A stretch of DNA of 64,000 nucleotides from Candidatus Delongbacteria bacterium (GTDB taxonomy: Bacteria; CAIWAD01). The stretch lies in contig JACKCN010000001.1 in the NCBI GenBank assembly GCA_020634015.1, positions 569,727 through 633,726 on the forward strand. Reading direction: 5' to 3'. A program made the position numbers and the translations under genes. Below are positions 8,620 through 39,833 of the stretch, piece by piece; position 1 is the first letter of the stretch, and every line of letters starts with the position of its first letter. The notes under the pieces are model-generated. The model did no database searches. It was given only the letters and a program-made list of their open reading frames with translations, and was not told the origin of the DNA.

Positions 8620-10416
8620 TCAGGCGCTCGGGGCAGGCGCGCTCGGATCGGCGGGAAGGTGCAAAGTGAAGCGGGAGCCCGCGCCAGGACGGCTGTCCAC
8701 ACTGACGCGACCCTGGTGAGTACGGGCGATGTGCTTGACGATGGACAGCCCCAGGCCGGTGCCGCCCATGCTGCGGCTGCGTGCCCGGTCCACCACATAG
8801 AAGCGCTCGAACAGCCGGGGCAGGTGCTCGGCGGGAATGCCGGGGCCCTGGTCTTCAATGGTGAGGCGCAGCTCGCTCTCGCCGGGATCCACGCGCAGCG
8901 TGACCGTGCCCTCCTCGGGGCTGTACTTGATGGCGTTTTCGACCAGGTTGATCAGTGCGCGCTCCAGCATGGCCGCGTTCAGCACCCAGTGCGGGTCACC
9001 CGCGCACTCGACCGCCAGGTTCACCCGACGCTCGCGGGCCTTGAACTCGCAGATCCCCAACGCCTCCTCGATCACGGCCCTCAGGCCGGTCAGCTGGAAC
9101 TCGACGGTCTGGTCCTGTTCGTCGCGTTCGATGCGCGACAGCGCCAGCAGATCGTCGATGATCGCGCTCAGGCGCACGACCTGGCGCTCAATGATGCCCA
9201 GGAAACGACGGGCAGTGGGCGGATCTTCCAGCGCTCCTTCGTTGAGCGATTCGACGAAGCCCCGGATCGAGGTGATGGGTGTGCGCAGTTCGTGTGAGAC
9301 ATTGGCCACAAAATCCTCGCGCACCCGTTCCAGGCGACGCATGCGCGTGATTTCGCTGAACACGGCCAGGCTGCCGATTTCCTGGTCGTCCAGGTCGTGC
9401 AGGGTGGTCACGCCCAGCGCCAGGTAGCGCAGGTCGGTTTCGCCCCAGGGCACGCACAGTTCACGGCTGCCCCGGGTGACCAGCGCGGGCATCAGCGCCT
9501 GGCGCAATTCCTCCAGCGGCAGCATGTCCAGCAGCAGGTTGCCGTGCAGACGGTCGCCCGGGAGACCCAGCAGGCGCACGGCCGCCCGGTTCACGAAGAG
9601 AATCCGGCCCGCCTTGTCCAGCCCCACCACCCCTTCGTTCATGGAATCCAGCAGCGCCTCGCGCATGTTCCGCTCGCGGGCCAGGCTGGCGATCTTCTCC
9701 TCCAGGCTGCCCGCCATCCGATTCATCGCCAGGGCCAGGGCGCTCAGTTCGGAGATCGGTACCGCTTCCAGGCGGAAACTGAGCCGTCCACTGGCGTACA
9801 GTTCCGCCGCGTGACGCATGCCTTCGATGGGACGGCTGATCCGCCGCGTGATCCAGAGTGCCAGACCGGCGGCGATCAGAGCCAGCACCAAGCTGCACAG
9901 GAAGAGGAACTGGTAGATCCGGCTCACTGCTTCGCGGACATCGTGCAGGGGAATGCTGGTGCGCACCACGGCCCGCGGTGTTCCATCCCGGTCGAGTCGC
10001 AGGGCCACGTAGACCATTTCCTGCTGAAGGGTCTTGCTGAAGCGGATCGAGTGGCCCTCGCCGCTCTGGAGGGCGGCCAGCATTTCCGGACGGGTGCCAT
10101 GATTCTCCATGCTGGCGGGATCTTCGTCCGTCTCCGCCAGCACGATTCCGTTCAGGGCCATGATCGTGATCCGCGTGTGCGAGGAGGGTCCGATGCGAAG
10201 CAGCAGGCGATCAAGGGCGTCGCGCTGATTGGATTCGAGAAGATCGATCACGGAAGGCGCCAGCAGCTGGGCGCGTTCCAGCAGGTCCTGCTGCTGGCGC
10301 TCGAAGGTCTGCTGACGGAAGGAGCGCCCGGCGAACACCGCCAGCAGCGCCAGACTGACCAGCAGGGTGGCCAGCAGTGCCGGAAAAAGTTGCAGGAAGA
10401 GCCTGCGATTCTTCAT
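8620..10416 (-). CDS. phoR: Sensor histidine kinase, PhoR-like.
   Basis: TM helix, PAS region, HisKA H-box (HELRTPITSIRGFVESL) and a HATPase_c domain with N, G1 and G2 boxes. Start placed at MKNRRLFLQLF. Confidence 0.8.
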   Translation of the reverse strand: MKNRRLFLQLFPALLATLLVSLALLAVFAGRSFRQQTFERQQQDLLERAQLLAPSVIDLLESNQRDALDRLLLRIGPSSHTRITIMALNGIVLAETDEDPASMENHGTRPEMLAALQSGEGHSIRFSKTLQQEMVYVALRLDRDGTPRAVVRTSIPLHDVREAVSRIYQFLFLCSLVLALIAAGLALWITRRISRPIEGMRHAAELYASGRLSFRLEAVPISELSALALAMNRMAGSLEEKIASLARERNMREALLDSMNEGVVGLDKAGRILFVNRAAVRLLGLPGDRLHGNLLLDMLPLEELRQALMPALVTRGSRELCVPWGETDLRYLALGVTTLHDLDDQEIGSLAVFSEITRMRRLERVREDFVANVSHELRTPITSIRGFVESLNEGALEDPPTARRFLGIIERQVVRLSAIIDDLLALSRIERDEQDQTVEFQLTGLRAVIEEALGICEFKARERRVNLAVECAGDPHWVLNAAMLERALINLVENAIKYSPEEGTVTLRVDPGESELRLTIEDQGPGIPAEHLPRLFERFYVVDRARSRSMGGTGLGLSIVKHIARTHQGRVSVDSRPGAGSRFTLHLPADPSAPAPSA

Positions 10417-17442: not shown

Positions 17443-18134
17443 TCACTGCAACCTGGCACGGCCACTCATGCTTCGAGATCGAGCACCCGCAGGGACGCCT
17501 GCTGATTGACCCCTTCTTCACGGGCAACCCGCTGGCGCGCGTGAGTCCGGCGGACTTCGACAGGCTGGACGCGATCCTCGTGACTCACGGCCACGGCGAT
17601 CACATCGGTGACACGGTGGAACTGGCGCGCCGCAGCGGGGCGCTGGTGGTCTGCAACTTCGAAATCAGCCAGTGGATGGAAACCCGGGGCGTGCGCAGCC
17701 ATGGCATGCATATCGGCGGAGGCTGGCAGTTTCCCTTCGGCCACGTCAAGCTGACCATTGCCCATCATGGCTCCACGGGGCCTTCGGGCGAAGCCCTGGG
17801 CAATCCCTGCGGCATCGTGCTCAGCGCGGGCGGCCGCAGGATCTATCACAGCGGTGACACAGGCCTGTTTCTGGACATGCAGCTCATCGGCTCCTTTCCC
17901 GCCCCCCTCGACCTGGCCCTGCTGCCCATCGGCGACAACTTCACCATGGGCGTGGACGATGCGGTCAAGGCCTGCCAGTTCCTCAAGGCCGGACTGGCGA
18001 TTCCCATGCACTACAACACATTTCCTCCCATCGAAGCCGACCCTCACGATTTTGTCCGCAAGGTGCTGGCCCAGGGTCAGCAGGCCCGCGTGCTGGCGAT
18101 TGGCGAAAGTCTCACCCTTGAGGAGTGTGATTGA
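17439..18134 (+). CDS. Metal-dependent hydrolase, metallo-beta-lactamase fold (UPF0173 family).
   Basis: The THGHGDHIGD motif is present. GTG start overlaps the kinase stop (GTGA). Confidence 0.75.
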   Translation: MITATWHGHSCFEIEHPQGRLLIDPFFTGNPLARVSPADFDRLDAILVTHGHGDHIGDTVELARRSGALVVCNFEISQWMETRGVRSHGMHIGGGWQFPFGHVKLTIAHHGSTGPSGEALGNPCGIVLSAGGRRIYHSGDTGLFLDMQLIGSFPAPLDLALLPIGDNFTMGVDDAVKACQFLKAGLAIPMHYNTFPPIEADPHDFVRKVLAQGQQARVLAIGESLTLEECD

Positions 18135-19219
18135 TGGCGGGCAATTCCTTCGGCAGCCTGTTCCGTATGACCACCGCGGGCGAAAGCCATGGCCCGGCCC
18201 AGGTGCTCATCCTCGATGGAGTGCCCGCTGGCCTGGAACTGTCCGTGGAGGACCTGCTGCCCGATCTGCGCCGCCGGCGCCCGGGCCAGTCCGCATTGAC
18301 GACACAGCGCCAGGAAGAAGACCTGCCCGAAATTCTGTCGGGAGTGCACGAAGGGCGCTGCACGGGAGCGCCTCTGACGGTGCTGGTACGCAACACGGAT
18401 GCGCGCTCGAAGGATTATGCCGAGCTGGCGAATGTGCTGCGGCCGGGACACGCCGACCAGGCCTGGCTGGCTCGTTATGGGTTGCGTGATCCGCGTGGCG
18501 GAGGCCGGGCCAGCGCGCGCGAGACGGTCGGCCGGGTGATCGCGGGCGCCGTGGCACGCAAGCTGCTGCACACCGCGGACATTCGCGTGCTGGGCTGGGT
18601 GCGGCAGGTCGGTGACTGCGTCTGCGAGCTGGCTCATCCCGATGGCGTCAGCCTGGAACAGGTGGAAGCCAGCCCCGTGCGCTGCCCGGACCCGGCAAGC
18701 TCGGCCCGGATGGTCACGCTGGTCGAGCAATGCCGTGATGCGGGGGACAGCATCGGTGGGGTGGCCGAGATCCGCGCCTGGGGAGTGCCAGCCGGGCTGG
18801 GTGAGCCGGTCTTCGACAAACTGCGCGCCGATCTGGGCAAGGCCCTTTTCAGCCTGCCCGCCGTGGTGGGTGTGGAATTCGGCGACGGCTTCGCCAGCGC
18901 GCGCCTGCGCGGCAGCCAGCACAACGACTCCTTCGTGACCCGCGCCGACGGCAGCACGGGCACCGCCAGCAATCATCACGGTGGCATCCTTGGCGGTCTC
19001 TCCAGCGGCATGCCCATCGTGATCCGCTGCGCCGTCAAGCCCACCAGTTCCATCGCCGCCAGCCAGCGCACCGTGGATACCGAGGGCCGCCCCGTGGAGC
19101 TTGCGATCACCGGACGCCACGACCCTTGCCTGCTGCCCCGCTTCATCCCCATGGCCGAGGCGATGGTGCTGGTGACCCTGGCGGATCACTGGTTGCGCCA
19201 GCGCTGCGCCCGGGTCTGA
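18134..19219 (+). CDS. aroC: Chorismate synthase.
   Basis: N-terminus MAGNSFGSLFRMTTAGESHG matches the AroC consensus. Its ATG overlaps the upstream stop (ATGA). Confidence 0.9.
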   Translation: MAGNSFGSLFRMTTAGESHGPAQVLILDGVPAGLELSVEDLLPDLRRRRPGQSALTTQRQEEDLPEILSGVHEGRCTGAPLTVLVRNTDARSKDYAELANVLRPGHADQAWLARYGLRDPRGGGRASARETVGRVIAGAVARKLLHTADIRVLGWVRQVGDCVCELAHPDGVSLEQVEASPVRCPDPASSARMVTLVEQCRDAGDSIGGVAEIRAWGVPAGLGEPVFDKLRADLGKALFSLPAVVGVEFGDGFASARLRGSQHNDSFVTRADGSTGTASNHHGGILGGLSSGMPIVIRCAVKPTSSIAASQRTVDTEGRPVELAITGRHDPCLLPRFIPMAEAMVLVTLADHWLRQRCARV

Positions 19220-19329
19220 CACCCTCGCGCCACCCCAGCATCAATCCATAGCTTCCTCGATCTCGACCTCGTGCTCGTGCTTGTGTTCGTGGCTCGTGCA
19301 CCTTGTGGTGACTCGGGTCAGCCAGGCCC

Positions 19330-20345
19330 GCCCCATGTCCTGTCATCCCCGTGAAGCGGGTCGCCCAGAATGGGGGCCCCGAGTGGTTACACCGCACACT
19401 CCCCTGCGCGGGGGGCGCTCTCTACCTTTTCTTCGCGAAGAAAAGGTAGGCCAAAAGAAGGCTCAGCAGGCCTTGCGCCGCGCAAACTTGGCCCGCGATG
19501 CGGTCCTTCGGGCCAAGCGCGGCGGCCCACATGAATGCCCGACCGCTCCGTCTCGATGGTTCCGCCACCGGCGTCACCGCTGTGGAAGAGTTTGATCTGA
19601 GGCGAGCCCCAGGTCCTACCCCCCCAAGCATGTCATTCTTGCGCAAGCAGGAACCCCGAGTGGTTGCACCGCAAGCTTTTTGCATTCGGAATCGCTGTGC
19701 GACAGACAGTCTGCGTGTCACGGATGTTGTCGCCGGTCGCCGGCAATGCGCTCCCCTGCGCGGGGGGCACTCTCTACCTTTTCTTCGCGAAGAAAAGGTA
19801 GACCAAAAGAAGGCTCAGCAGGCCCCGCGCCGCGCAAACTTGGCCCGCGATGCGGTCCGGCGAGCAAGCGCGGCGGCCCACGCTCCCTGCCCGACCGTTC
19901 CGCCTCGATGGTTCCGCCACCGGCGTCACCACTGTGGAAGAAGATTGATCTGAGGCGAGCCCCAGGTCCTGTCATCCCCCCCCAAGCATGTCATTCCCGC
20001 GCAAGCGGGAACCCCGAGTGGTTACACCGCAAGCTTTTTCGCATTCGGAATCGCTGTGCGACAGACAGTGTGCGTGTCACGGATGTTGTCGCCGGTCGCC
20101 GGCAATGCGCTCCCCTTGCGCGGGGGGCGCTCTCTACCTTTTCTTCGCGAAGAAAAGGTAGACCAAAAGAAGGCTCAGCAGACCCCGCGCCGCGCAAACT
20201 TGGCCCGCTTCGCGGTCCGGCGAGCAAGCGCGGCGGCCCACGTGAATGCCTGACCGTTCCGTCTCGATGGTTCCGCCACCGGCGTCACCACTGCGGAAGA
20301 AAATTGATCTGAGGGATTTTGTCATTCCCGCGCAAGCGGGCGTGG
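19330..20345. repeat. Tandem array of three and a half ~355-bp units. Each unit has a perfect 28-bp palindrome and a CRISPR-repeat-like hairpin.
   Basis: Unit periods are 352 and 360 bp, anchored on CCCCTGCGCGGGGGG at 19401, 19753 and 20113. The palindrome CTACCTTTTCTTCGCGAAGAAAAGGTAG is perfect at 19422-19449, 19774-19801 and 20134-20161. The hairpin GTCATTCCCGCGCAAGCGGGAACCCCGAG occurs at about 19342, 19632, 19990 and 20321. Confidence 0.85.
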
Positions 20346-20453
20346 TGGCATCGGTCCCAATCCGTGCGACATCCATGTGTCAGGTCACCCAGAGTGGCGC
20401 CCCCGGCAATGCGCTCATTTCCCGCAAGTCAGCGCGCGAAAAGGTAGACCAAA

Positions 20454-21085
20454 ACCCCATGCCCCCATCCCATCCTACCTGTCGGCGGACCTTCCCGCTG
20501 CGCGAGGGAAGGGATCGCTCGCCTCGGCACACAAGCGCTGCCTGCCAAGCCCCGAATGGGGCATCACACATCCGTAGCCCGTGGGGAATCCAAGGGCGGA
20601 TGCGTGGGTGCGCCGCCACATTCGATGCATGAAGAGAATCGCTCCGGCGCAATCCACTTCGTGGGGACACCACGGGTGATTGATGATGTGTGGTGCAACC
20701 GCTCGGGGTTCCCGCCTGCGCGGGAATGACGCACACTGTGGCCCGTGGAGATTCCACGGGTGGGCGTCAATCTATGACGTAGACACCGTAGCCCGGATGA
20801 AGCCTCCGTATCCGTCACGACACGAGAGGTGCCCGGCGCAATCCGGGGAACATGGTGAAACCATGGGATGGCATGGGGGCAGTGTCGCGGACATCAGACT
20901 TCTGGACCGTTCCGCGCGGTGCCCCCATCCCATCCCGCCTGTCGGCGGGCCTTCCCCCGCTGCGCGGGGGAAGGGGAATGTGGCTTCGCCTCGCTACACA
21001 ATCGCTGCTTGCCAAGCCCCGAACGGGGCGTCGTACATACAAGCCCGTGGGGAATCCACGGGCGGACGTACGGCGGCCAGGGGCG
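20454..21085. repeat. Second non-coding repeat family: two ~160-bp copies about 461 bp apart, with an inverted copy of the hairpin element between them.
   Basis: Copy 1 starts around 20454-20461 (CCCCATCCCATCC...) and runs to about 20617. Copy 2 is about 20922-21085. They share CTTCCC-GCTGCGC-GGGAAG and CCCGTGGGGAATCCACGGG hairpins. At 20688-20730 lies the reverse complement of GTCATTCCCGCGCA(A/G)GCGGGAACCCCGAG(T/C)GGTT(A/G)CACC. Confidence 0.7.
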
Positions 21086-21141
21086 TGGTCATCCGTGGGT
21101 GTGATGGGAAATGCCCGCAGCAAGCGGGCCGACGTTGGGGA

Positions 21142-22311
21142 TCAGGCGGTCGCGCGAAGGGCGGCGGCGGCCTGTTGCCAGTTGGCCAGTTCGGCCATGA
21201 ACTCCAGGCGCAATTGACGGGCCTCGCGCTTCAGTTCCTGGAGACGCGGGCGACGCTCGACCCGGGGCTGGCTTCTGAGTGCGTGATGCTCGCTCCAGAG
21301 CTGGCGGGCGCGCGCGTGCAGCAACTCGAGGCGCTGTTCCAGCCCCAGCAGCATCTCGCTGGCCTGGCTGCGCAGATCTTCCAGCCGGGTGGTCAGGCTG
21401 TGTTCCAGGCGGCGGCGCTGCTCCCTGAGGCGGGCCATCTGCACGGTCTCCTCGGGCACACGCTTCAGGCTCCAGGCCAGGCGGGTCTTCTCGAGCAGCC
21501 AGATCACCCACTTGCCCGGATCGAAATGCCAGGCCCGGATGCCGTTGCGATAGTCGCCGGGGAAGGTGTGGTGGTAATTGTGATAGCCTTCGCCGTAGGT
21601 GAAGAAGGCCACCAGGCCGCTGTCCCGGGCCGTGGTGCCGCTGTCGTAGGGGCGGCGGCCCAGGAAGTGGCAGAGACTGTTGATGAAGAAGGTGCCGTGA
21701 TGCACGAAGACCACGCGCGCCACCCCTCCGAAGAGGAAACCCGCCAGCGCGGCCTGGAACAGCGGACGCCCGCTGAGCAGTCCCTGGATCACGCCCACCA
21801 GAGTCGGCAGCAGCAGGCCCATGGAAATCATCAGCGCATGGATGTGCCGGTCCTGCCAGCGCACGAAGGGATCCTTCTCCAGATCGGCCACATTGCTGCG
21901 GTCCATCTTCGGGCTCTGCTCGCGCAGCAGCCAGCCCATGTGAGCGTGAAAGAAGCCCTTGTTGATGTTGTAGGGATCGTAGGGGAAGCCGTCCCGGTCG
22001 ACGTACTTGTGATGGTAGCGGTGCTCGCTGGCCCAGGTGAGAATCGAATTCTCGAAGGTGGCGGCCGCGAACAGCCCCGTGATCACACGCACCGCCTTGC
22101 GGGCCTGGAAACTGCGGTGGGCGAAGAGTCGGTGATAGCCCACGGTGATCGCCAGACCGGTGGCGTAGGCCATGACCAGAAAATGGACGAGATCGAAGGC
22201 ATGGAAGCCGTATCTGGAAATGAACCATGGCACTCCGATCACGCTGATCAGGAAGGTGGCCAAGAGGAAGAGGGTGGTTTTCCAGTTGATGGGGGGTTTG
22301 TCCTGGGACAT
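21142..22311 (-). CDS. Acyl-CoA (delta-9) fatty acid desaturase.
   Basis: TM helices plus three His boxes (HRLFAHRSF, HRYHHKY, HNYHHTF). Start placed at MSQDKPPINWK. Confidence 0.85.
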   Translation of the reverse strand: MSQDKPPINWKTTLFLLATFLISVIGVPWFISRYGFHAFDLVHFLVMAYATGLAITVGYHRLFAHRSFQARKAVRVITGLFAAATFENSILTWASEHRYHHKYVDRDGFPYDPYNINKGFFHAHMGWLLREQSPKMDRSNVADLEKDPFVRWQDRHIHALMISMGLLLPTLVGVIQGLLSGRPLFQAALAGFLFGGVARVVFVHHGTFFINSLCHFLGRRPYDSGTTARDSGLVAFFTYGEGYHNYHHTFPGDYRNGIRAWHFDPGKWVIWLLEKTRLAWSLKRVPEETVQMARLREQRRRLEHSLTTRLEDLRSQASEMLLGLEQRLELLHARARQLWSEHHALRSQPRVERRPRLQELKREARQLRLEFMAELANWQQAAAALRATA

Positions 22312-22433
22312 GCTGTGCCTTTCAGGGGAAACGAGGGTCGGGGTGCAGGAAGGTCCCTGCGGGCCCGCCCCAGTGTAGCAAGTTCGGGGACCCTGCCCCG
22401 CGTGAATCGTCTCATGGGGAGATTGTTGTGGCT

Positions 22434-23102
22434 TCAGCAGCGGGGCAAGGCCCGGAAAAACGCCTGAAGCCGTTCGGGGTCCAGAGCGCCACCGCGGCGT
22501 ACTCCGCTGCACAGATCGAGGCCAAAGGGCCCCACCCGCTCCACGGCCGTGGCAACATTCTCCGGAGTGAGGCCCCCGGCCAGCAGGACGGGCACCGACA
22601 GCTCCTCACGAATCCGGCGGCTGAGGGCCCAGTCATGTACCCGGCCGGTGCCGCCCAGTTCGGGGACACGCGCTCCCGGATTGCCCGAATCCAGCAGGAT
22701 CAGGCGCGCGCCCGCCCTTTCAAGCTCCCGGGCCTCGTCCAGTGACTCGGGCCCCTGCACGTGCACGACCGGAACCAGCCCGATGCCGGGCAAAGCCTGC
22801 CTCAGCTCCTCCAGCAGGCCGGGAGGCACGGGACTGACCAATTGGATCACATCGCAGCCCGTGCTGCGTTGCTGGGCCACGATCGTCTCCAGATCGAGCG
22901 AGGCCGTCAGCAGGAAACAGCGCACCGGGGGCGGCACCTGCGCGGCGATGCGCGCGATGCACGATTCGGAAATCACTCCCGGACCCGAGGGCATGTTGGA
23001 CACCAGCCCCAGGGCGTGCGCGCCCGCCGCCACGGCCAGGCGGGCCTCCTGGGCGCTGGATATGCAGCAGATCTTGATTCGCGGGGTGTGACAGGCGTCC
23101 AA
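22434..23102 (-). CDS. trpF: N-(5'-phosphoribosyl)anthranilate isomerase.
   Basis: PRAI pattern: RIKICCISSAQEA at the N-terminus and a TIM-barrel length of 222 aa. Confidence 0.75.
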   Translation of the reverse strand: MDACHTPRIKICCISSAQEARLAVAAGAHALGLVSNMPSGPGVISESCIARIAAQVPPPVRCFLLTASLDLETIVAQQRSTGCDVIQLVSPVPPGLLEELRQALPGIGLVPVVHVQGPESLDEARELERAGARLILLDSGNPGARVPELGGTGRVHDWALSRRIREELSVPVLLAGGLTPENVATAVERVGPFGLDLCSGVRRGGALDPERLQAFFRALPRC

Positions 23103-33200: not shown

Positions 33201-33271
33201 CTGGGCTGCAGGGATTCGAACCCCGATAGCTGGAACCAGAATCCAGAGTCCTACCATTGGACGACAGCCCA
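33201..33271 (-). tRNA. tRNA-Gln, anticodon CUG.
   Basis: Reverse complement: TGGGCTG TC GTCC AATGGTA GGAC T CTGGA TTCTGGT TCCAG CTAT CGGGG TTCGAAT CCCTG CAGCCCA G. Seven-bp acceptor stem with U1-A72 as in bacterial tRNA-Gln. Anticodon loop TT-CTG-GT. TTCGAAT T-loop. Confidence 0.85.
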
Positions 33272-33831: not shown

Positions 33832-35328
33832 TTGTTGTCCATGACTCACGACCGCTCCATCAGCCTGCGACCGTTGTTTCTGGTACTTCTGCTGGCCCTG
33901 GGCCTGCGGTTGGCCTTCTTCCAGGGATTTGCCTTTTCCGACGATGCCCACTACGCCTGGTTGGCCGCCCATCCCGGTGCCCAGTTCGGGGTGGACTACC
34001 CGGGCTATCCGGTCATGCCCCTGCGCGTGGGTCACCTGTTCCTTCTGGGACTGAGCCAGCACTGGTTCGGTCCCGGTGACTGGGGTCTGGCCTTCTTCCC
34101 GCTGATGTTCTCGCTGGCCATGATCGCCATTGCCTGGCGCCTGGGATGCCTGCTCGGCGGACACGGACACGTGGGCAATGCAGCGGCCCTGCTGCTGGCC
34201 CTGCTGCCGGTGGACATCGCCCTGAGCACGCTGGCCTTCGCCGATCTTTCCGCAGCCGCCATGCTGGGCCTGGGAGTCTGGTTGCTGCTGGAGGCTCGTC
34301 ACACGGCCCGGCACTGGCTGCGGGTACCGGGCGCACTGGTACTGGGACTCTCGCTGCTCTGGAAGGAAACCGTGCTCTGGCTGGTGCCGGTGATTCTGGC
34401 GATCCAGTTCGGCATCTGGTTGCGTGATTTCCGCCGCGGCACTCCCCTGCGACCGGATGCAACTCTGCTGGCCGCCGGACTGGGCATTCTGCTGGTGCTG
34501 GGCCTGGAGTCCCTGGTATACGCACTCCTTCACGGCGACCCGCTCTGGCGCTTTCACCAGATGGAACTGAACACGCGGCTCTGCCCCGACGACTTCTTCA
34601 AACTGGGCAGCGCCAAGGGGTACGCCACACCCGAGGAACGACCCGCCGCACTGGCACGCCTGCTGTTGTGGAGCAAGCCCAAGGCCCTGTTCCTGCGCCG
34701 CAATACGCTGTTCATTCTGGCTCTGGCTCTGGTGCAGCTACTGCGCAGACTTCGCCGACATGATCCGGGGCCGCAGGGACTGTGGTTCGGTGGATTGCTG
34801 CTGATGTTCCTCTTCGGCAGCACATCTCTGCAGCGCTACCAGCCACTGCCGCTGGACCTGCCATGGTACATCTACCCACTCTTCCTGCCGGCCGCCCTGC
34901 TGGCCGGTGAACTGCTGGCGGAACTGAGCTGGCGCCGGTTTCGCTGGCTGCTGGCACCCTTGCTGGCGCTCAGCCTCTGGATGTGTCTGGATTTCCGGAA
35001 CTACTTCGACCACTCCGGATTGCAGGAAGTGCGCGCTGCGCTGTCGGCGTCGCCCACAACTCCCGTGTACGGAGATCCCTTCAGCCTGCTCTCGCTGGAT
35101 CATCTGGATGGCCAGCCTTCCGTCAGCCGCGGCATTCCACTGGGCGACAGCGGTCCTGCCGGTCTGGATCTCCCCCCGCCAGGCGCTCTCCTCCTGCTGA
35201 ACCCCGGCAATCTGCACGAGCTGCGTGCCCAGGGGCATGACCCGGTTTCAGTGCCTGCTGGGTCCAATCCGGATTGGACTTTGCTCAGCTCTGGCGGGGG
35301 CTTCCTGCTGTTCCAGCGACTGCACTGA
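33832..35328 (+). CDS. GT39/GT83-like (PMT/ArnT family) membrane glycosyltransferase.
   Basis: 498 aa with about 11 TM helices. The N-terminal loop DDAHYAW resembles the DE/DD motif of PMT-type transferases. Confidence 0.7.
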   Translation: MLSMTHDRSISLRPLFLVLLLALGLRLAFFQGFAFSDDAHYAWLAAHPGAQFGVDYPGYPVMPLRVGHLFLLGLSQHWFGPGDWGLAFFPLMFSLAMIAIAWRLGCLLGGHGHVGNAAALLLALLPVDIALSTLAFADLSAAAMLGLGVWLLLEARHTARHWLRVPGALVLGLSLLWKETVLWLVPVILAIQFGIWLRDFRRGTPLRPDATLLAAGLGILLVLGLESLVYALLHGDPLWRFHQMELNTRLCPDDFFKLGSAKGYATPEERPAALARLLLWSKPKALFLRRNTLFILALALVQLLRRLRRHDPGPQGLWFGGLLLMFLFGSTSLQRYQPLPLDLPWYIYPLFLPAALLAGELLAELSWRRFRWLLAPLLALSLWMCLDFRNYFDHSGLQEVRAALSASPTTPVYGDPFSLLSLDHLDGQPSVSRGIPLGDSGPAGLDLPPPGALLLLNPGNLHELRAQGHDPVSVPAGSNPDWTLLSSGGGFLLFQRLH

Positions 35329-35339
35329 CTTCTTCATCC

Positions 35340-36245
35340 ATGGATGCTGGCCTTGCGGCAGGCATGACGCCAGCGGAGGGCTGGCAGGCATGACGCCAGC
35401 GGAGGGTGCTGGCCTTGCAGCAGGCGTGACGCCAGCCGTGGATGCTGGCCTTGCAGCAGGCGTGACGCCAGCCGTGGATGCTGGCCTTGCAGCAGGCGTG
35501 ACGCCAGCCGTGGATGCTGGCCTTGCAGCAGGCGTGACGCCAGCCGTGGATGCTGGCCTTGCAGCAGGCGTGACGCCAGCGGAGGATGCTGGCCTTGCAG
35601 CAGGCATGACGCCAGCGGAGGGTGCTGGCCTTGCAGCAGGCATGACGCCAGCGGAGGGTGCTGGCCTTGCAGCAGGCGTGACGCCAGCGGAGGATGCTGG
35701 CCTTGCAGCAGGCGTGACGCCAGCGGAGGGTGCTGGCCTTGCAGCAGGCATGACGCCAGCGGAAGGGGCTGGCATGGCAGCAGGTGTTATGCCAGCGGAG
35801 GGTGCTGGCCTGGCAGCAGGCTTGACGCCAGCCGTGGATGTTGGCCTTGCAGCAGGCATGAAACCAGCCGTGGATGTTGGCCTTGCAGCAGGCGTGGAGA
35901 CAGCGGTGGGTGCTGGCCTTGCAGCAGGCGTGACGCCAGTGGAGGGTGCGGGCGTGGCAGCAGGCATGACGCCAGCGGAGGGTGCTGGCCTTGCAGCTGG
36001 CATGACGCCAGCGGAGGGTGCTGGCCTGGCAGCAGGCGTGACGCCAGCCGTGGATGCTGGCCTTGCAGCAGGCATGACGCCAGCGGAGGATGCTGGCCTT
36101 GCAGCAGGCATGACGCCAGCGGAGGGTGCTGGCCTTGAAGCAGGCGTGACGCCAGCCGTGGATACTGGCCTTGCAGCAGGCATGAAGCCAGCGGAGGATG
36201 CTGGCCTGGCAGCAGGCGTGACGCCAGCGGCGAAGTTGGCCTGGT
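35340..36245. repeat. 36-bp tandem repeat array of about 25 copies. It is open in frame on both strands, giving AGVTPAVDAGLA on + and TPAARPASTAGV on -.
   Basis: Consensus unit is GCAGGCGTGACGCCAGCCGTGGATGCTGGCCTTGCA. Copies differ at a few positions (GTG/ATG, GCC/GCG, GTG/GAG, GAT/GGT). Track ORFs 35225-36253 (+) and 35248-36183 (-) are both products of this array. Neither has a signal peptide. Both show GC3 near 50%. Confidence 0.8.
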
Positions 36246-39200
36246 TTACTTGAGCAGGATCATCTTGGCCGTCTGACTGAAGCCATTGGACCCAGGAAGG
36301 TCCTGGTCAACCGTCATGCGATACAGATAGACACCGCTTGCAGCCGAAGCAGCATCCCAGGAAAAGCCATGGCTGCCCGCGCTCAGCACCTGGTCTGCCA
36401 GGCTGGCCACTTCCTGCCCACGCAGATTGTATACTTTGAGGGAGACCGCTGCGGACCGGGGAAGCTGAATATCAATGCGGGTCCGAGGATTGAAGGGATT
36501 GGGATAGTTCTGTCCCAACTCGAAGCGGGCTGGCAACTCGGATTCTTCCCGCACATCCGTGGAAGAAGACCTGACATCGATCCAGTTCAGGTTGAACTGC
36601 CCGACATGAAGTCCCACATGCATGATCTGCTCACCGGCAGCCAGAAAGACATCCGGGATCTGCAGTTCCTGCCAGAACTGCCAGCCACCCGTCACCGGAA
36701 CGGGCACCAGCCCCGTCAGGTCCACACCGTTGACCTCAATGTGCAGACTGCCTCCACCAGGGACGGAAGAAACGGATGGCACCAGGGCATACATGCCCGC
36801 TTCCGCCACCTCGATCGTGTACTCCAGCCACTCCCCATCCTCAATCCAGCCGATGTCGTAGCCCCCGCCTTGATCATTGGATGCCTCGATGTCAACACCT
36901 TCGGTGCTGCGGAAAGGCACTCCGAGGTTCATCGCATCCACGTCGTGATAGGCCACCCCCTCGCCGCCTTCATCGTAGAACTCTGCCTGGATCAGTCCGG
37001 GAATCTGGAATGGAGTTCCCAGGTAGGGCGTCCCATTCTCAAGCACAGTGATCGAGACACTGTCTGAAGACGAGATGTTGAGATTGTTGGTAACGGCAAG
37101 GGAAACGGTATACGTTCCTGTTTCGGTGAAGACATGCTCGACATCAGGCGCTTGTGATGTGTCTCCGTCCCCAAAATCCCACGCATGGCTGAGCGGGGAA
37201 TCATTGGGATCAAAACTGTTGCTTCCGGTGAACAAGACACTCAATGGAGCCTTCCCGGATGTTCTGCTCGGCAACAACAAGGCCACCGGGGAATCCGGAT
37301 CCACGGGTGAGGTGCTGAAAGCCGCCGTCTGGTGTGGGCCCACCAGCAGGGAGAAGCCGTCCGAGAACGTCACCATCCGCTCCTGGGATCCGGCATTGAA
37401 AGCGACGTAGGTCAGATGGCCCGCGGGATCCCTGAAAACGGAGTACGTCGGAATATCTGCAGCAATGGCGGTTTCCACCTGCCCCATCTTTTTCAGATTG
37501 TACAACCAGTGGTATGTATGCGCACGGGACTCGCCATCGAAGGGTTCATACTCGATGTCTGCGTGATACAGCGTCACTGCCAGATCCGGATCTGACAGTG
37601 CCAGGTACTCCCAGAGGATATCCTGCCAGACAGTCGGTTCCCCGTTCCGTTCGGAAACAACTTCGGCGTAGTTGTCCAAGACATAGGCTGGATTCCTTCC
37701 CAGATACAGGGAGCCGCTTGTGACAGGAAGCATGTTGATTCCGTGGATGAACTCGGGTTCAGCGCCGAACCAGGTGGAATGCACGCCCTTTCCGCCCCAG
37801 ACCATGCCGATCGCCGTGTGCGGATAATCCTGGGGAAACACCTCGTTGTCCACATCGAACCAGTAGTGGTCCACGGCGGATGCCTCGTTGGCATGCAGGA
37901 AGATGCCCAGGTCACGGATCTCCGGCTGATTGGTGATCTCCCCCCAGAGGACGACCGCAGAAGCGAAGTTCATCGATTCTGAACTGGATTCCTGATTGTT
38001 GCCCTCCGCAAAGTCGCCATGGCCGGCCGCCCAGGAATGCCCGGCATAGGCATCAAAGGTTCTCAGAAATGGGAACTCTGTATCACTGCGATCCCAGTTG
38101 TCACAATCCTTGATCAGCAGATTCACCATTCCTCCCCACTGACTCGGGGAGGCCCAGGCACTGTCGAACTGCGCAATGGTCGCGGCGCTCATGATGGCGT
38201 AACTGGCATGAAAGTGATGATCATTGATCTGGTCGTCCGCCCCGAATCCGGAGGGATACCCTGTGAGCACATCCCAATTCTCGTCATAGGAGTACTCCTG
38301 CGAGCCGCCCACCGTGAACAAATCCTCCAACCGGACTTTGACCTCATCCAGAAAGTGGTCACGCTCAGCCGTGGCACCAAGCTGGTCGGCGATCTGAGCC
38401 AGATGCGCGAAGCGCGCCATCGCCTTTCCGTTTTCGTAAGTCGGTTCGATGGACAGAGTTTCGCCCGCCACGTCCTGCACATGGTTCAGAAGCACCGTGC
38501 GGTTGTAGTTTCCTTGATCGGGCAGGGCGGGCAGTATTCCGGAAAACTGCAGTTCGGTCGTGAAGGAATTGCCCTCGAGCAATTTCATGGTCCCACGCGG
38601 AGAGTGATAGGTATGGTTCAGCAGCGGGCTGTCCGTATTGAGCCATTGATGCCGATACAGCGCGGTCAAGGTCTGATTCACATTGGTCGCGAAACTGTCT
38701 CTCAGTACGGTCTCATAGGTATAGGTATTCGTGAGCCGCGAGGACGACTCGTCGTACTGCCACTCGATGCGGCTGTCCGTCACGAAAGCGTAGGCGTGGC
38801 TGCGAAACAGCTCAAGCGTCGCCGGACTCGTGTCGGGAAGCAGCGCAACGGAGAGATAATCCTTGCCGTCCAGAGTCGACTGGAAGGTGCTGGTTCCGGA
38901 CCATGTCGAGCCTGTCGGCGCGAAAACACCGTAGTGCTTGCCGCTGATCGTGATCCCCAGTACTTCATTCTGATTGTACCAGATCACGGGAGTCTGTGCG
39001 CTTGCAACAACCGCATTGCCGCCGGTGATTCTGAAGAACGCCCAGGGAAGTCCGTGTCCCAGAGTGGCTTCCATGGATATCGGCCCATCTTCCCACAGAG
39101 CCGTGACTGTCCAATCCCCATAGTGATGGGTCAGTGTCTGGACAGCTGACAATCCGGCAACGCCAATGGTCAGCTGGGCAGCATATGGATACAGAAAATC

Positions 39201-39554
39201 ATCGGCTGCGTAGAGATGATCGGTTGTGTATCCGATTTCCAGACCACTTGAGACGGCCTTGAAATTCAAGGGGTGTGCGTACAGAATGTTGGAGTACGAA
39301 GAGCCGAAGAAGGGGTAAATCAGGCTGCTCCAGAAATCGTTGGTTTGAACAGGCTGGTCAAATGCTGCGGATACTTTCGGAGTCGCATCCGCGCCATTGA
39401 AATTCCGTGGCCCCACTCCACCGGGTGGCAAGGACGTGCTGTAACTTCCAAGGCCAACCGGAACGGATTGTCCGGCAGCGCTCGCAGAATACAGGCAGAT
39501 CAGGAACAAGGATCCAATACTCTGTTTGACTGATTTCAACGCATTCACATTCAT
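36246..39554 (-). CDS. Secreted GH81 endo-beta-1,3-glucanase with PKD and CBM6-like domains and a T9SS CTD.
   Basis: Signal peptide MNVNALKSVKQSIGSLFLICLYSASAAG. GH81 signatures (INDHHFHASY, NNQESSSESMNFASA). PKD domain (SHAWDFGDGDTSQAPDVEHVFTETGTYTVSLAVTN). CBM6-like beta-sandwich. C-terminal NYPNPFNPRTRIDIQL...GVYLYRM. Confidence 0.85.
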   Translation of the reverse strand: MNVNALKSVKQSIGSLFLICLYSASAAGQSVPVGLGSYSTSLPPGGVGPRNFNGADATPKVSAAFDQPVQTNDFWSSLIYPFFGSSYSNILYAHPLNFKAVSSGLEIGYTTDHLYAADDFLYPYAAQLTIGVAGLSAVQTLTHHYGDWTVTALWEDGPISMEATLGHGLPWAFFRITGGNAVVASAQTPVIWYNQNEVLGITISGKHYGVFAPTGSTWSGTSTFQSTLDGKDYLSVALLPDTSPATLELFRSHAYAFVTDSRIEWQYDESSSRLTNTYTYETVLRDSFATNVNQTLTALYRHQWLNTDSPLLNHTYHSPRGTMKLLEGNSFTTELQFSGILPALPDQGNYNRTVLLNHVQDVAGETLSIEPTYENGKAMARFAHLAQIADQLGATAERDHFLDEVKVRLEDLFTVGGSQEYSYDENWDVLTGYPSGFGADDQINDHHFHASYAIMSAATIAQFDSAWASPSQWGGMVNLLIKDCDNWDRSDTEFPFLRTFDAYAGHSWAAGHGDFAEGNNQESSSESMNFASAVVLWGEITNQPEIRDLGIFLHANEASAVDHYWFDVDNEVFPQDYPHTAIGMVWGGKGVHSTWFGAEPEFIHGINMLPVTSGSLYLGRNPAYVLDNYAEVVSERNGEPTVWQDILWEYLALSDPDLAVTLYHADIEYEPFDGESRAHTYHWLYNLKKMGQVETAIAADIPTYSVFRDPAGHLTYVAFNAGSQERMVTFSDGFSLLVGPHQTAAFSTSPVDPDSPVALLLPSRTSGKAPLSVLFTGSNSFDPNDSPLSHAWDFGDGDTSQAPDVEHVFTETGTYTVSLAVTNNLNISSSDSVSITVLENGTPYLGTPFQIPGLIQAEFYDEGGEGVAYHDVDAMNLGVPFRSTEGVDIEASNDQGGGYDIGWIEDGEWLEYTIEVAEAGMYALVPSVSSVPGGGSLHIEVNGVDLTGLVPVPVTGGWQFWQELQIPDVFLAAGEQIMHVGLHVGQFNLNWIDVRSSSTDVREESELPARFELGQNYPNPFNPRTRIDIQLPRSAAVSLKVYNLRGQEVASLADQVLSAGSHGFSWDAASAASGVYLYRMTVDQDLPGSNGFSQTAKMILLK

Positions 39555-39833
39555 CTGAGCAGTTCCATTGATGGTGCGGACATCATTGCTGGGCACGGGT
39601 CTGCGATTCTTGTTGCGATATGCCCACAACATCCTTGGTTGAGTCGCGACCGCCCAGTCTAGCAGTTTCGGTTGACCTGCCTCGAAACATTGAAGATACA
39701 GGCGGCGACGCGAGTGGATCACATCACTTAAATCAGACCACAGGCTGGTCCATCCGGCAAGCCTGCTTCATGGAATGGAAAGCCCCGCCTGCAGGATTGC
39801 AGACGGGGCTTTGCTCGAACTGAGACCAGCTTC

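Follow-up and report, generated by a model that had tools for sequence, protein, structure and literature searches.

A strain-variable array of tandem repeats and NTS/dRS3-type hairpins in a convergent gene spacer of an uncultured bacterium labelled Candidatus Delongbacteria

The 28-nt Neisseria Transformation Sequence (NTS), CGTCATTCCCGCGMAVGCGGGAATCYRG, includes the dRS3 palindrome and is bound and cut by SsnA, a 94-aa GIY-YIG nuclease that recognises it only as single-stranded DNA (ssDNA) and on one strand only (PMC11893778, 2025). Cleavage and binding both depend critically on the GTC ahead of the palindrome and on the C after it, and hairpins carrying the Ssn-related motif (SRM) flank ssn genes in many phyla, a hairpin-gene-hairpin layout that has been likened to an insertion sequence (PMC11893778). 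In the Neisseria intergenic mosaic element (NIME) arrays, dRS3 hairpins separate repeat sequence (RS) units of approximately 50-150 bp (range 19-214) belonging to >100 RS families, and syntenic arrays vary in repeat number and length among strains (PMC1797815). According to a description from 2007, such arrays had not been seen outside Neisseria. The locus described here is a 1,922-nt spacer between two convergent genes, at positions 19220-21141 of a 64-kb stretch of DNA from an uncultured bacterium labelled Candidatus Delongbacteria (64,000 nt; GenBank contig JACKCN010000001.1, positions 569,727-633,726), referred to below as the window. The spacer is composed of tandem repeats and of hairpins that resemble the NTS.

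The two flanking genes are aroC and a fatty-acid desaturase gene, and the spacer is the longest non-coding gap of the window in a rough gene call. It is non-coding, without a credible gene, and consists nearly entirely of repeats. Both points had been made in an earlier note on this DNA, and the second is borne out by Tandem Repeats Finder (TRF), by alignments and by comparison with shuffled sequences, in which 0-0.02 matches are expected per array motif. None of the four longest open reading frames (ORFs) of the spacer has a Pfam match. A six-frame pseudo-protein (3037 aa), aimed to catch spurious ORFs called on repeat copies elsewhere, found no homologue, which is a weak negative as the one known spurious ORF of contig L003 is itself missing from the collection searched (numbers in the range L001-L300 denote fetched contig stretches or loci). 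The region is probably a NIME/BIME-like mosaic array (BIME, bacterial interspersed mosaic element), which arose when SRM-type hairpins were seeded in a convergent spacer that tolerates insertions and which local recombination later enlarged and reshuffled. Among the roles that the earlier note had suggested, a recombination or binding-site scaffold comes closest, with a hairpin that by its sequence belongs to the NTS/SRM family of Ssn targets and a structure that varies between strains.

The hairpin forms the first part of a 42-nt element, which consists of a GC hairpin followed by the tail CCCCGAGTGGTTACACCGCA. Plus-strand copies lie at 19632, 19990 and 20321, the last of them truncated, and a minus-strand copy occupies 20689-20730. 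A fifth, degenerate copy lies near the aroC end. The earlier note had seen this hairpin in direct and inverted copies, which holds, and had called it CRISPR-repeat-like, which does not, because the NTS and SRM matches, the flanks and the taxonomic spread identify it as an NTS/SRM-family hairpin. Two copies, 19989-20016 on the plus strand and 20704-20731 on the minus strand, match the SRM pattern HGTCWYN(0-2)YYVSBRHN(0-5)WNVSBRGN(0-2)RNCYNB (SRM and NTS definitions from PMC11893778), for which 0.69 matches are expected in the whole shuffled 64-kb window. The same two copies differ from the NTS at 3 and 2 positions, respectively, sharing 25-26 of the 28 positions with the asymmetric flanks included, and both retain the GTC upstream of the palindrome and the C directly after it. 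Relative to the 20-bp dRS3 inverted repeat that borders NIME units, ATTCCC-N8-GGGAAT, the window hairpins carry one mismatch, the last stem base being C and not T (GGGAAC), and a perfect dRS3 (ATTCCCGCGCAAGCGGGAAT) is present in the same-species strain contig L003. The 5′ GTCA flank, the ATTCCCGCG..CGCGGGAA stem and a GCAA/GCAG-type loop are also shared with the NTS and SRM hairpins, and the copies are intergenic, clustered and oriented. Judged by its sequence, the window hairpin is therefore a member of the NTS/dRS3-type (Ssn-related motif) family. It differs from the described members in the addition of the conserved 20-nt tail; neither the tail nor the hairpin with its tail was found in 185,579 species genomes (a collection without the window's own genome), and the five known copies all lie in this one spacer.

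The spread of SRM hairpins over many phyla (PMC11893778) was confirmed by scans with the 27-nt core TCATTCCCGCGCARGCGGGAAYCCCGA. The core was present in 170 fetched stretches, 83 of them metagenomic, with unrelated flanks, and 87 from named genomes of the Chloroflexota, Alpha-, Beta-, Gamma- and Deltaproteobacteria, Planctomycetota, Bacteroidota, a candidate-phyla-radiation (CPR) lineage and Neisseria. Some of the metagenome matches come from Neisseria contigs that also carry DNA uptake sequences close by, and the bare NTS core is common in viral contigs, which is uninformative for this locus. In L054/L067/L082, L037 and L162 the core directly adjoins small GIY-YIG (Ssn-like) genes in the order hairpin(+)-gene-hairpin(-), and the GTCA ends face outward. 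In CBDBCU01, a long-read metagenome-assembled genome (MAG) of the Dehalococcoidia (loci L089-L164), SRM hairpins are dispersed over every contig sampled, mostly as convergent +/- doublets spaced approximately 70 nt start-to-start, a REPIN-like arrangement that is not seen in the window.

The coordinates of the array components and of the flanking genes are listed in Table 1. TRF reports a tandem repeat with a period of 352 nt, 2.6 copies and 92% matches over 19399-20314, and alignment extends this to three or more copies of 352-360 nt, in agreement with the tandem array of ~355-bp units proposed earlier. Units 1 and 2 are complete, and unit 3 is followed by the start of a partial fourth unit that reaches 20456 and holds only half of the palindrome (20438-20454). 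The full palindrome, which the earlier note had given as a perfect 28-bp one, measures 28-30 bp and occurs once per unit. It is unchanged in 6 of 6 aligned units despite approximately 8% unit divergence, and as a DNA hairpin it folds at -11.1 kcal/mol (z=-6.3). A repeat pair earlier taken to be 160 bp in length is also real, but its true size is 141-147 nt, with 83% identity between the copies. This pair is here termed module E; each copy contains three hairpins, and copy 2 begins with the right arm of the long hairpin at 20865-20936. The degenerate hairpin copy (19324-19398) folds no better than shuffles (z=-0.02), and the minus-strand copy with its flanks forms a 7-bp stem with z=-1.0 only (DNA fold). 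At 19681-19695 and 20040-20054, approximately 10 nt past the tails of the 19632 and 19990 hairpins, the sequence (T/C)GCATTCGGAATCGC resembles the NTS minus its central stem-loop (CGtCATTC...GGAATC) and, from this resemblance, could be a palindrome-excision scar or have arisen by chance.

Table 1. Features of the aroC-desaturase spacer and its flanking genes (positions in the window)
Feature	Position	Strand	Basis or remark
aroC, chorismate synthase	18131-19219	+	Pfam Chorismate_synt
Unique aroC 3′ flank, including a short CTCGTG hexamer run (19268-19299)	19220-19323		Kept in same-species contigs L001-L004
Hairpin CCCGTGGGGAATCCACGGG	Four copies in 19220-21141		
Degenerate fifth hairpin + tail copy, with stem insertion	19324-19398	+	~75% identical to 19953-20031
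Tandem unit 1 (352 nt)	19399-19750	+	TRF; alignment
Perfect 28-30 bp palindrome, TCTACCTTTTCTTCG followed by CGAAGAAAAGGTAG(A)	19421-19450; identical at 19773-19802 and 20133-20162		One per unit
Hairpin + 20-nt tail, mutated stem (TGTCATTCTTGCGCAAGCAGGAACCCCGAGTGGTTGCACCGCA)	19631-19673	+	No SRM match; stem absent from DNA fold
Tandem unit 2 (359 nt)	19751-20109	+	TRF; alignment
NTS/SRM-type hairpin TGTCATTCCCGCGCAAGCGGGAACCCCG + tail AGTGGTTACACCGCA	19989-20031	+	SRM match; 7-bp stem, z=-2.7
Tandem unit 3 (first 205 nt well conserved, then diverged to ~20416)	20110-20456	+	Alignment
Truncated NTS-like hairpin TGTCATTCCCGCGCAAGCGGG, element stops just past the stem	20320-20340	+	
Module E copy 1	20460-20600	+	Three hairpins: CCTTCCC..GGGAAGG, GCCCCGAATGGGGC, CCCGTGGGGAATCCAAGGG
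Inverted NTS/SRM-type hairpin + tail (CGTCATTCCCGCGCAGGCGGGAACCCCGAGCGGTTGCACCACA on the minus strand)	20689-20731	-	SRM match; 90% complementary to 19990-20031
72-nt hairpin, 17-nt arms GGGATGGCATGGGGGCA / TGCCCCCATCCCATCCC spaced 38 nt	20865-20936		-26.3 kcal/mol, z=-4.6
Module E copy 2	20920-21066	+	83% identical to copy 1
Short GC hairpin GCCCGCTTGCTGCGGGC	21113-21129	-	13 nt past the desaturase stop codon; z=-2.1
Fatty-acid desaturase	21142-22512; start probably 22311	-	Pfam FA_desaturase

The array was recovered from other samples. Four independent short-read contigs reproduce its left part, at 98.6-99.4% identity, and three its right part, with 98.5-99.4% identity overall, and it is therefore real and not an assembly artefact. 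All of these contigs terminate inside the array, which is thus a barrier to assembly. Every short-read assembly of the species is interrupted here, so that arrays of this type are systematically missing from MAGs. No part of the region matched any of 72,556 plasmids (blastn), the palindrome and the CCCGTGG hairpin had 0 matches in viral contigs, and besides the NTS-type hairpin no part of it matches any fetched locus. In these comparisons, every module apart from the hairpin was confined to this species.

The contigs from other samples also differ from the window in array structure. L003, which enters from aroC, and L298, which enters from the desaturase gene, come from different samples and share the junction ...GGTTACACCGG/CCACCCCATGCCCCC, at which the hairpin tail runs straight into module E, placing the breakpoint right after the hairpin. 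L298 carries a single hybrid module E, copy-1-like in its left part and copy-2-like in its right part, and such a hybrid is the product expected if recombination occurred between the two E copies. The short allele of L298 lacks the inverted hairpin segment (20689-20731). Together, L003 and L298 describe an allele of approximately 1.0 kb, compared with 1.92 kb in the window. As the two E copies are only 83% identical, too different to be collapsed by a k-mer assembler, the difference in length is taken to be real. In the unit alignment, moreover, the second unit of L003 is recombinant between units 3 and 1 of the window.

These features correspond to those of NIME arrays in that a long non-coding array has dRS3-type hairpins between repeated units, varies between strains in length and order, and has a breakpoint at a hairpin. 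The window units are, however, tandem copies of one another, whereas NIME RS units derive from many families, and there are approximately five hairpins in place of the tens found in NIMEs, no link to surface-antigen genes shown in the window, and a host that is an uncultured FCB-like (Fibrobacterota-Chlorobiota-Bacteroidota) bacterium of 64% G+C and not Neisseria. As the size and diversity of its units do not agree with those of RS units, the array is NIME-like in behaviour but not a NIME in the strict sense.

Clusters of repetitive extragenic palindromes (REP), or BIMEs, and REPINs are palindromes with a 5′ GTAG, associated with REP-associated tyrosine transposases (RAYT), in Enterobacteria and Pseudomonas. 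The spacer is similar in that GC-rich extragenic palindromes and other motifs are clustered 3′ of convergent genes, where side effects on mRNA 3′-ends or as terminators are possible. However, its hairpins start with GTCA and not GTAG, their sequence fits NTS/SRM, and no RAYT (IS200/IS605-like) gene was seen in the window, although no search aimed at RAYT was made.

Recombination, and not transposition, appears to have built the array. One or more Ssn-type hairpins with the lineage-specific 20-nt tail may have landed in the convergent spacer, where insertions would be harmless, and tandem duplication of the surrounding sequence would have given rise to the ~355-nt unit. Duplication of module E, with an inverted hairpin copy between its two copies, and gene conversion and unequal crossing-over between units would then lead to strains of one species that differ in array length and module order. 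By analogy with SsnA, an Ssn-type enzyme of this organism would be expected to act on the hairpins, which are potential ssDNA substrates. The locus places NTS/dRS3-type hairpins and a NIME-like strain-variable array in an uncultured lineage that bears the label Delongbacteria and is remote from Neisseria. If its genome does encode an Ssn nuclease, the role of Ssn and its hairpins in environmental bacteria could be studied naturally at this locus.

Several observations weigh against a mosaic array seeded by SRM-type hairpins. The SRM pattern fits only 2 of the 5 hairpin copies, those at 19340, 19632 and 20321 not matching, and although the motif is enriched over shuffles in the window, no further copy of the hairpin or of any module was found in the remainder of the 64 kb, and none of the hairpin with its tail in the species genomes, so that a dispersed family in this genome is not demonstrated. 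No GIY-YIG/ssn gene was detected in the 64-kb window by tblastn with two Ssn-like proteins, and the 348-nt interior between the facing hairpins contains no ssn gene. Tight +/- SRM doublets (~70 nt), the main arrangement in other genomes, are not seen in the window. The inter-hairpin units are 235-350 nt in length, compared with 19-214 nt for NIME RS units. Finally, because the hairpin is a short GC-rich palindrome, it could conceivably have converged on an NTS-like sequence.

The array is not conserved across species. In L005, the nearest relative, whose aroC is 77% identical, a 392-aa NHL/Por_Secre_tail gene sits exactly in the spacer between aroC and the desaturase gene, and there are no repeats. 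L296 (GCA_030429345.1), from a more distant relative, shares the same seven-gene synteny, with aroC and desaturase 67% and 63% identical, respectively, and its 734-nt spacer (9171-9904) is occupied by an unrelated array, a 308-nt tandem repeat (2.3 copies, 98% identity) that includes CTGCAGGCGAAGCCTGCAG hairpins and inverted arms of 48 nt. No similarity between the two arrays was detectable by local alignment, the score being equal to the shuffle mean. The Logan contig L297, from the species of L296, breaks at the first hairpin. Elsewhere in the same assembly, L113 (GCA_030429345.1; 290-600 and 1215-1370) contains units of 133 nt in tandem, in each of which a canonical NTS hairpin is combined with a perfect 20-bp palindrome, GGGTCGATCGCGATCGACCC. 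The units begin right after the stop codon of a gene and flank a small two-gene cassette, whose products resemble, by eye, a DUF4160/DUF2442 pair. L113 and the window thus share a location directly behind a stop codon and an organisation in which each tandem unit includes an NTS hairpin and a perfect palindrome, but they differ in unit length (133 nt and 355 nt), in the palindrome and in the flanking cassette, and have no similarity outside the hairpin.

A nest of miniature inverted-repeat transposable elements (MITEs) or similar non-autonomous elements, with the array as an insertion pile-up, had been offered in the earlier note and is unlikely. Several observations would fit it. The hairpin with its tail is found in both orientations, 17 nt from the start of module E copy 2 recur in inverted form ahead of that copy, and 48-nt inverted arms are present in the syntenic array of L296. 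The facing hairpins at 20321(+) and 20730(-) share their outward-GTCA geometry with the ssn-gene flanks of L054 and L037, and the hairpin-gene-hairpin layout itself resembles an insertion sequence (PMC11893778). However, no target-site duplications are visible at the module borders, and the searches of the remaining 64 kb, the viral contigs (palindrome and CCCGTGG hairpin) and the species genomes (hairpin with tail) gave no dispersed copies. The head-to-tail periodicity of 352-360 nt and the recombinant L003 unit bear the mark of tandem duplication and unequal exchange and not of independent insertions.

It is rather improbable that the array is a purely local junk expansion, produced by slippage or unequal crossing-over, in which the NTS/dRS3 resemblance is coincidental. 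The private nature of all modules besides the hairpin, the lack of conservation in relatives, and the absence from the window of further copies and of an ssn gene are what such an expansion would leave. Against this stand the agreement with the NTS at 25-26 of 28 positions including asymmetric flanks, where 0.69 SRM matches are expected per whole shuffled window, the conserved 20-nt tail of the hairpin and its presence in both orientations, and the canonical NTS arrays carried by the MAG of the syntenic relative L296.

A similarly doubtful proposal is that the spacer is a maintained exchange or insulator site, where Ssn-cut hairpin arrays would control recombination and cargo, for example a type IX secretion system (T9SS)-secreted NHL protein such as that of one relative, would be swapped in and out. 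It is prompted by two distant relatives that independently keep long, unrelated tandem hairpin arrays at the same site, by a third that has a secreted-protein gene there, and by the second array of the window (35.4-36.2 kb), which abuts a T9SS cargo gene.

An array of structured non-coding RNA (ncRNA) genes, or a long structured 3′ untranslated region with a functional RNA in each unit, is very unlikely, although it too had been suggested in the earlier note. Local hairpins are far better folded than shuffles (the palindrome at z=-6.3 and the long hairpin at z=-4.6), and, by its sequence, the stem variant at 19632 stays paired on the plus strand, where one change is compensatory and one pair is G-U. 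The whole unit, by comparison, folds with z=-2.64 on the minus strand and only z=-1.05 on the plus strand. Terminator-like sites number 10, versus 1.8 expected, but this count is inflated because one repeat is counted several times. No Rfam family was found in 19220-21141 at the gathering score or, in a search to E<=1, beyond a single sub-threshold match to COG2908 (17 bits, E=0.39; gathering 58.7), and no sigma-70-like promoter was found there. These negative results and the unremarkable folding of the unit make ncRNA genes unlikely; in addition, the array is absent from the closest relative, is replaced by unrelated sequence in another, and loses whole modules among strains.

A decayed gene or a degenerate CRISPR array is hardly credible, since, for all that the 392-aa gene of L005 sits exactly between aroC and the desaturase gene, tblastn of its protein against the window found four paralogues elsewhere and, within the array, only a non-syntenic E=9.1 match, which effectively rules out an NHL/T9SS gene remnant, and the ORFs give no Pfam signal, while the hairpin copies, which we take to resemble type I-E CRISPR repeats superficially, lie 330-360 nt apart, one of them inverted, and are separated by 92% identical repeats, unlike spacers.

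At the desaturase end of the array, the hairpin that closes module E copy 2 (21043-21063; z=-4.2) has TTGTATGT behind it on the minus strand and in this resembles a terminator for the desaturase gene. The short GC hairpin at 21113-21129 is also present in L298, with one stem substitution (GCGGGC to GCGCGC) in L299 and L300. On the minus strand, these two hairpins are plausible desaturase 3′-end structures, and the GC-rich hairpins of the array may serve incidentally as 3′-end or terminator structures for both aroC and the desaturase gene.

The aroC and desaturase proteins of the window are 100% identical to MCB9472651.1 and MCB9472652.1 from a 'Candidatus Delongbacteria bacterium' MAG, in which they lie on a contig of 1.05 Mb. 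Exact look-ups of the window aroC and desaturase gave no record. From the consecutive numbering of the two accessions, the depositors apparently annotated no coding sequence in between. Across NCBI MAGs, near-identical aroC and desaturase proteins of this single species carry the label Candidatus Delongbacteria, Cloacimonadota or Calditrichota, and the phylum label of the window is uncertain because of these conflicts. As the aroC proteins of the next relatives are merely 77% and 67% identical, the lineage is poorly sampled.

A second array is present in the window at 35384-36230, where a 36-nt unit is repeated 23.5 times with 89% matches between a convergent ORF (33832-35328, plus strand) and a gene for a T9SS-tail protein (36246-39722, minus strand). 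Its minus-strand unit, CGTCAYGCCTGCTGCAAGGCCAGCAYCC..., accounts for 16 SRM pattern matches, compared with 0.69 expected in the whole shuffled window. This array is open on both strands, and its variable positions follow no clear period-3 pattern, so that it is probably non-coding. The cumulative GC skew has its minimum at approximately 34-35 kb, beside a tRNA gene (33201-33271) and the 36-nt array. The G+C content, approximately 64% for the window, falls to 55-57% over 37-40 kb, within large T9SS-tail protein genes.

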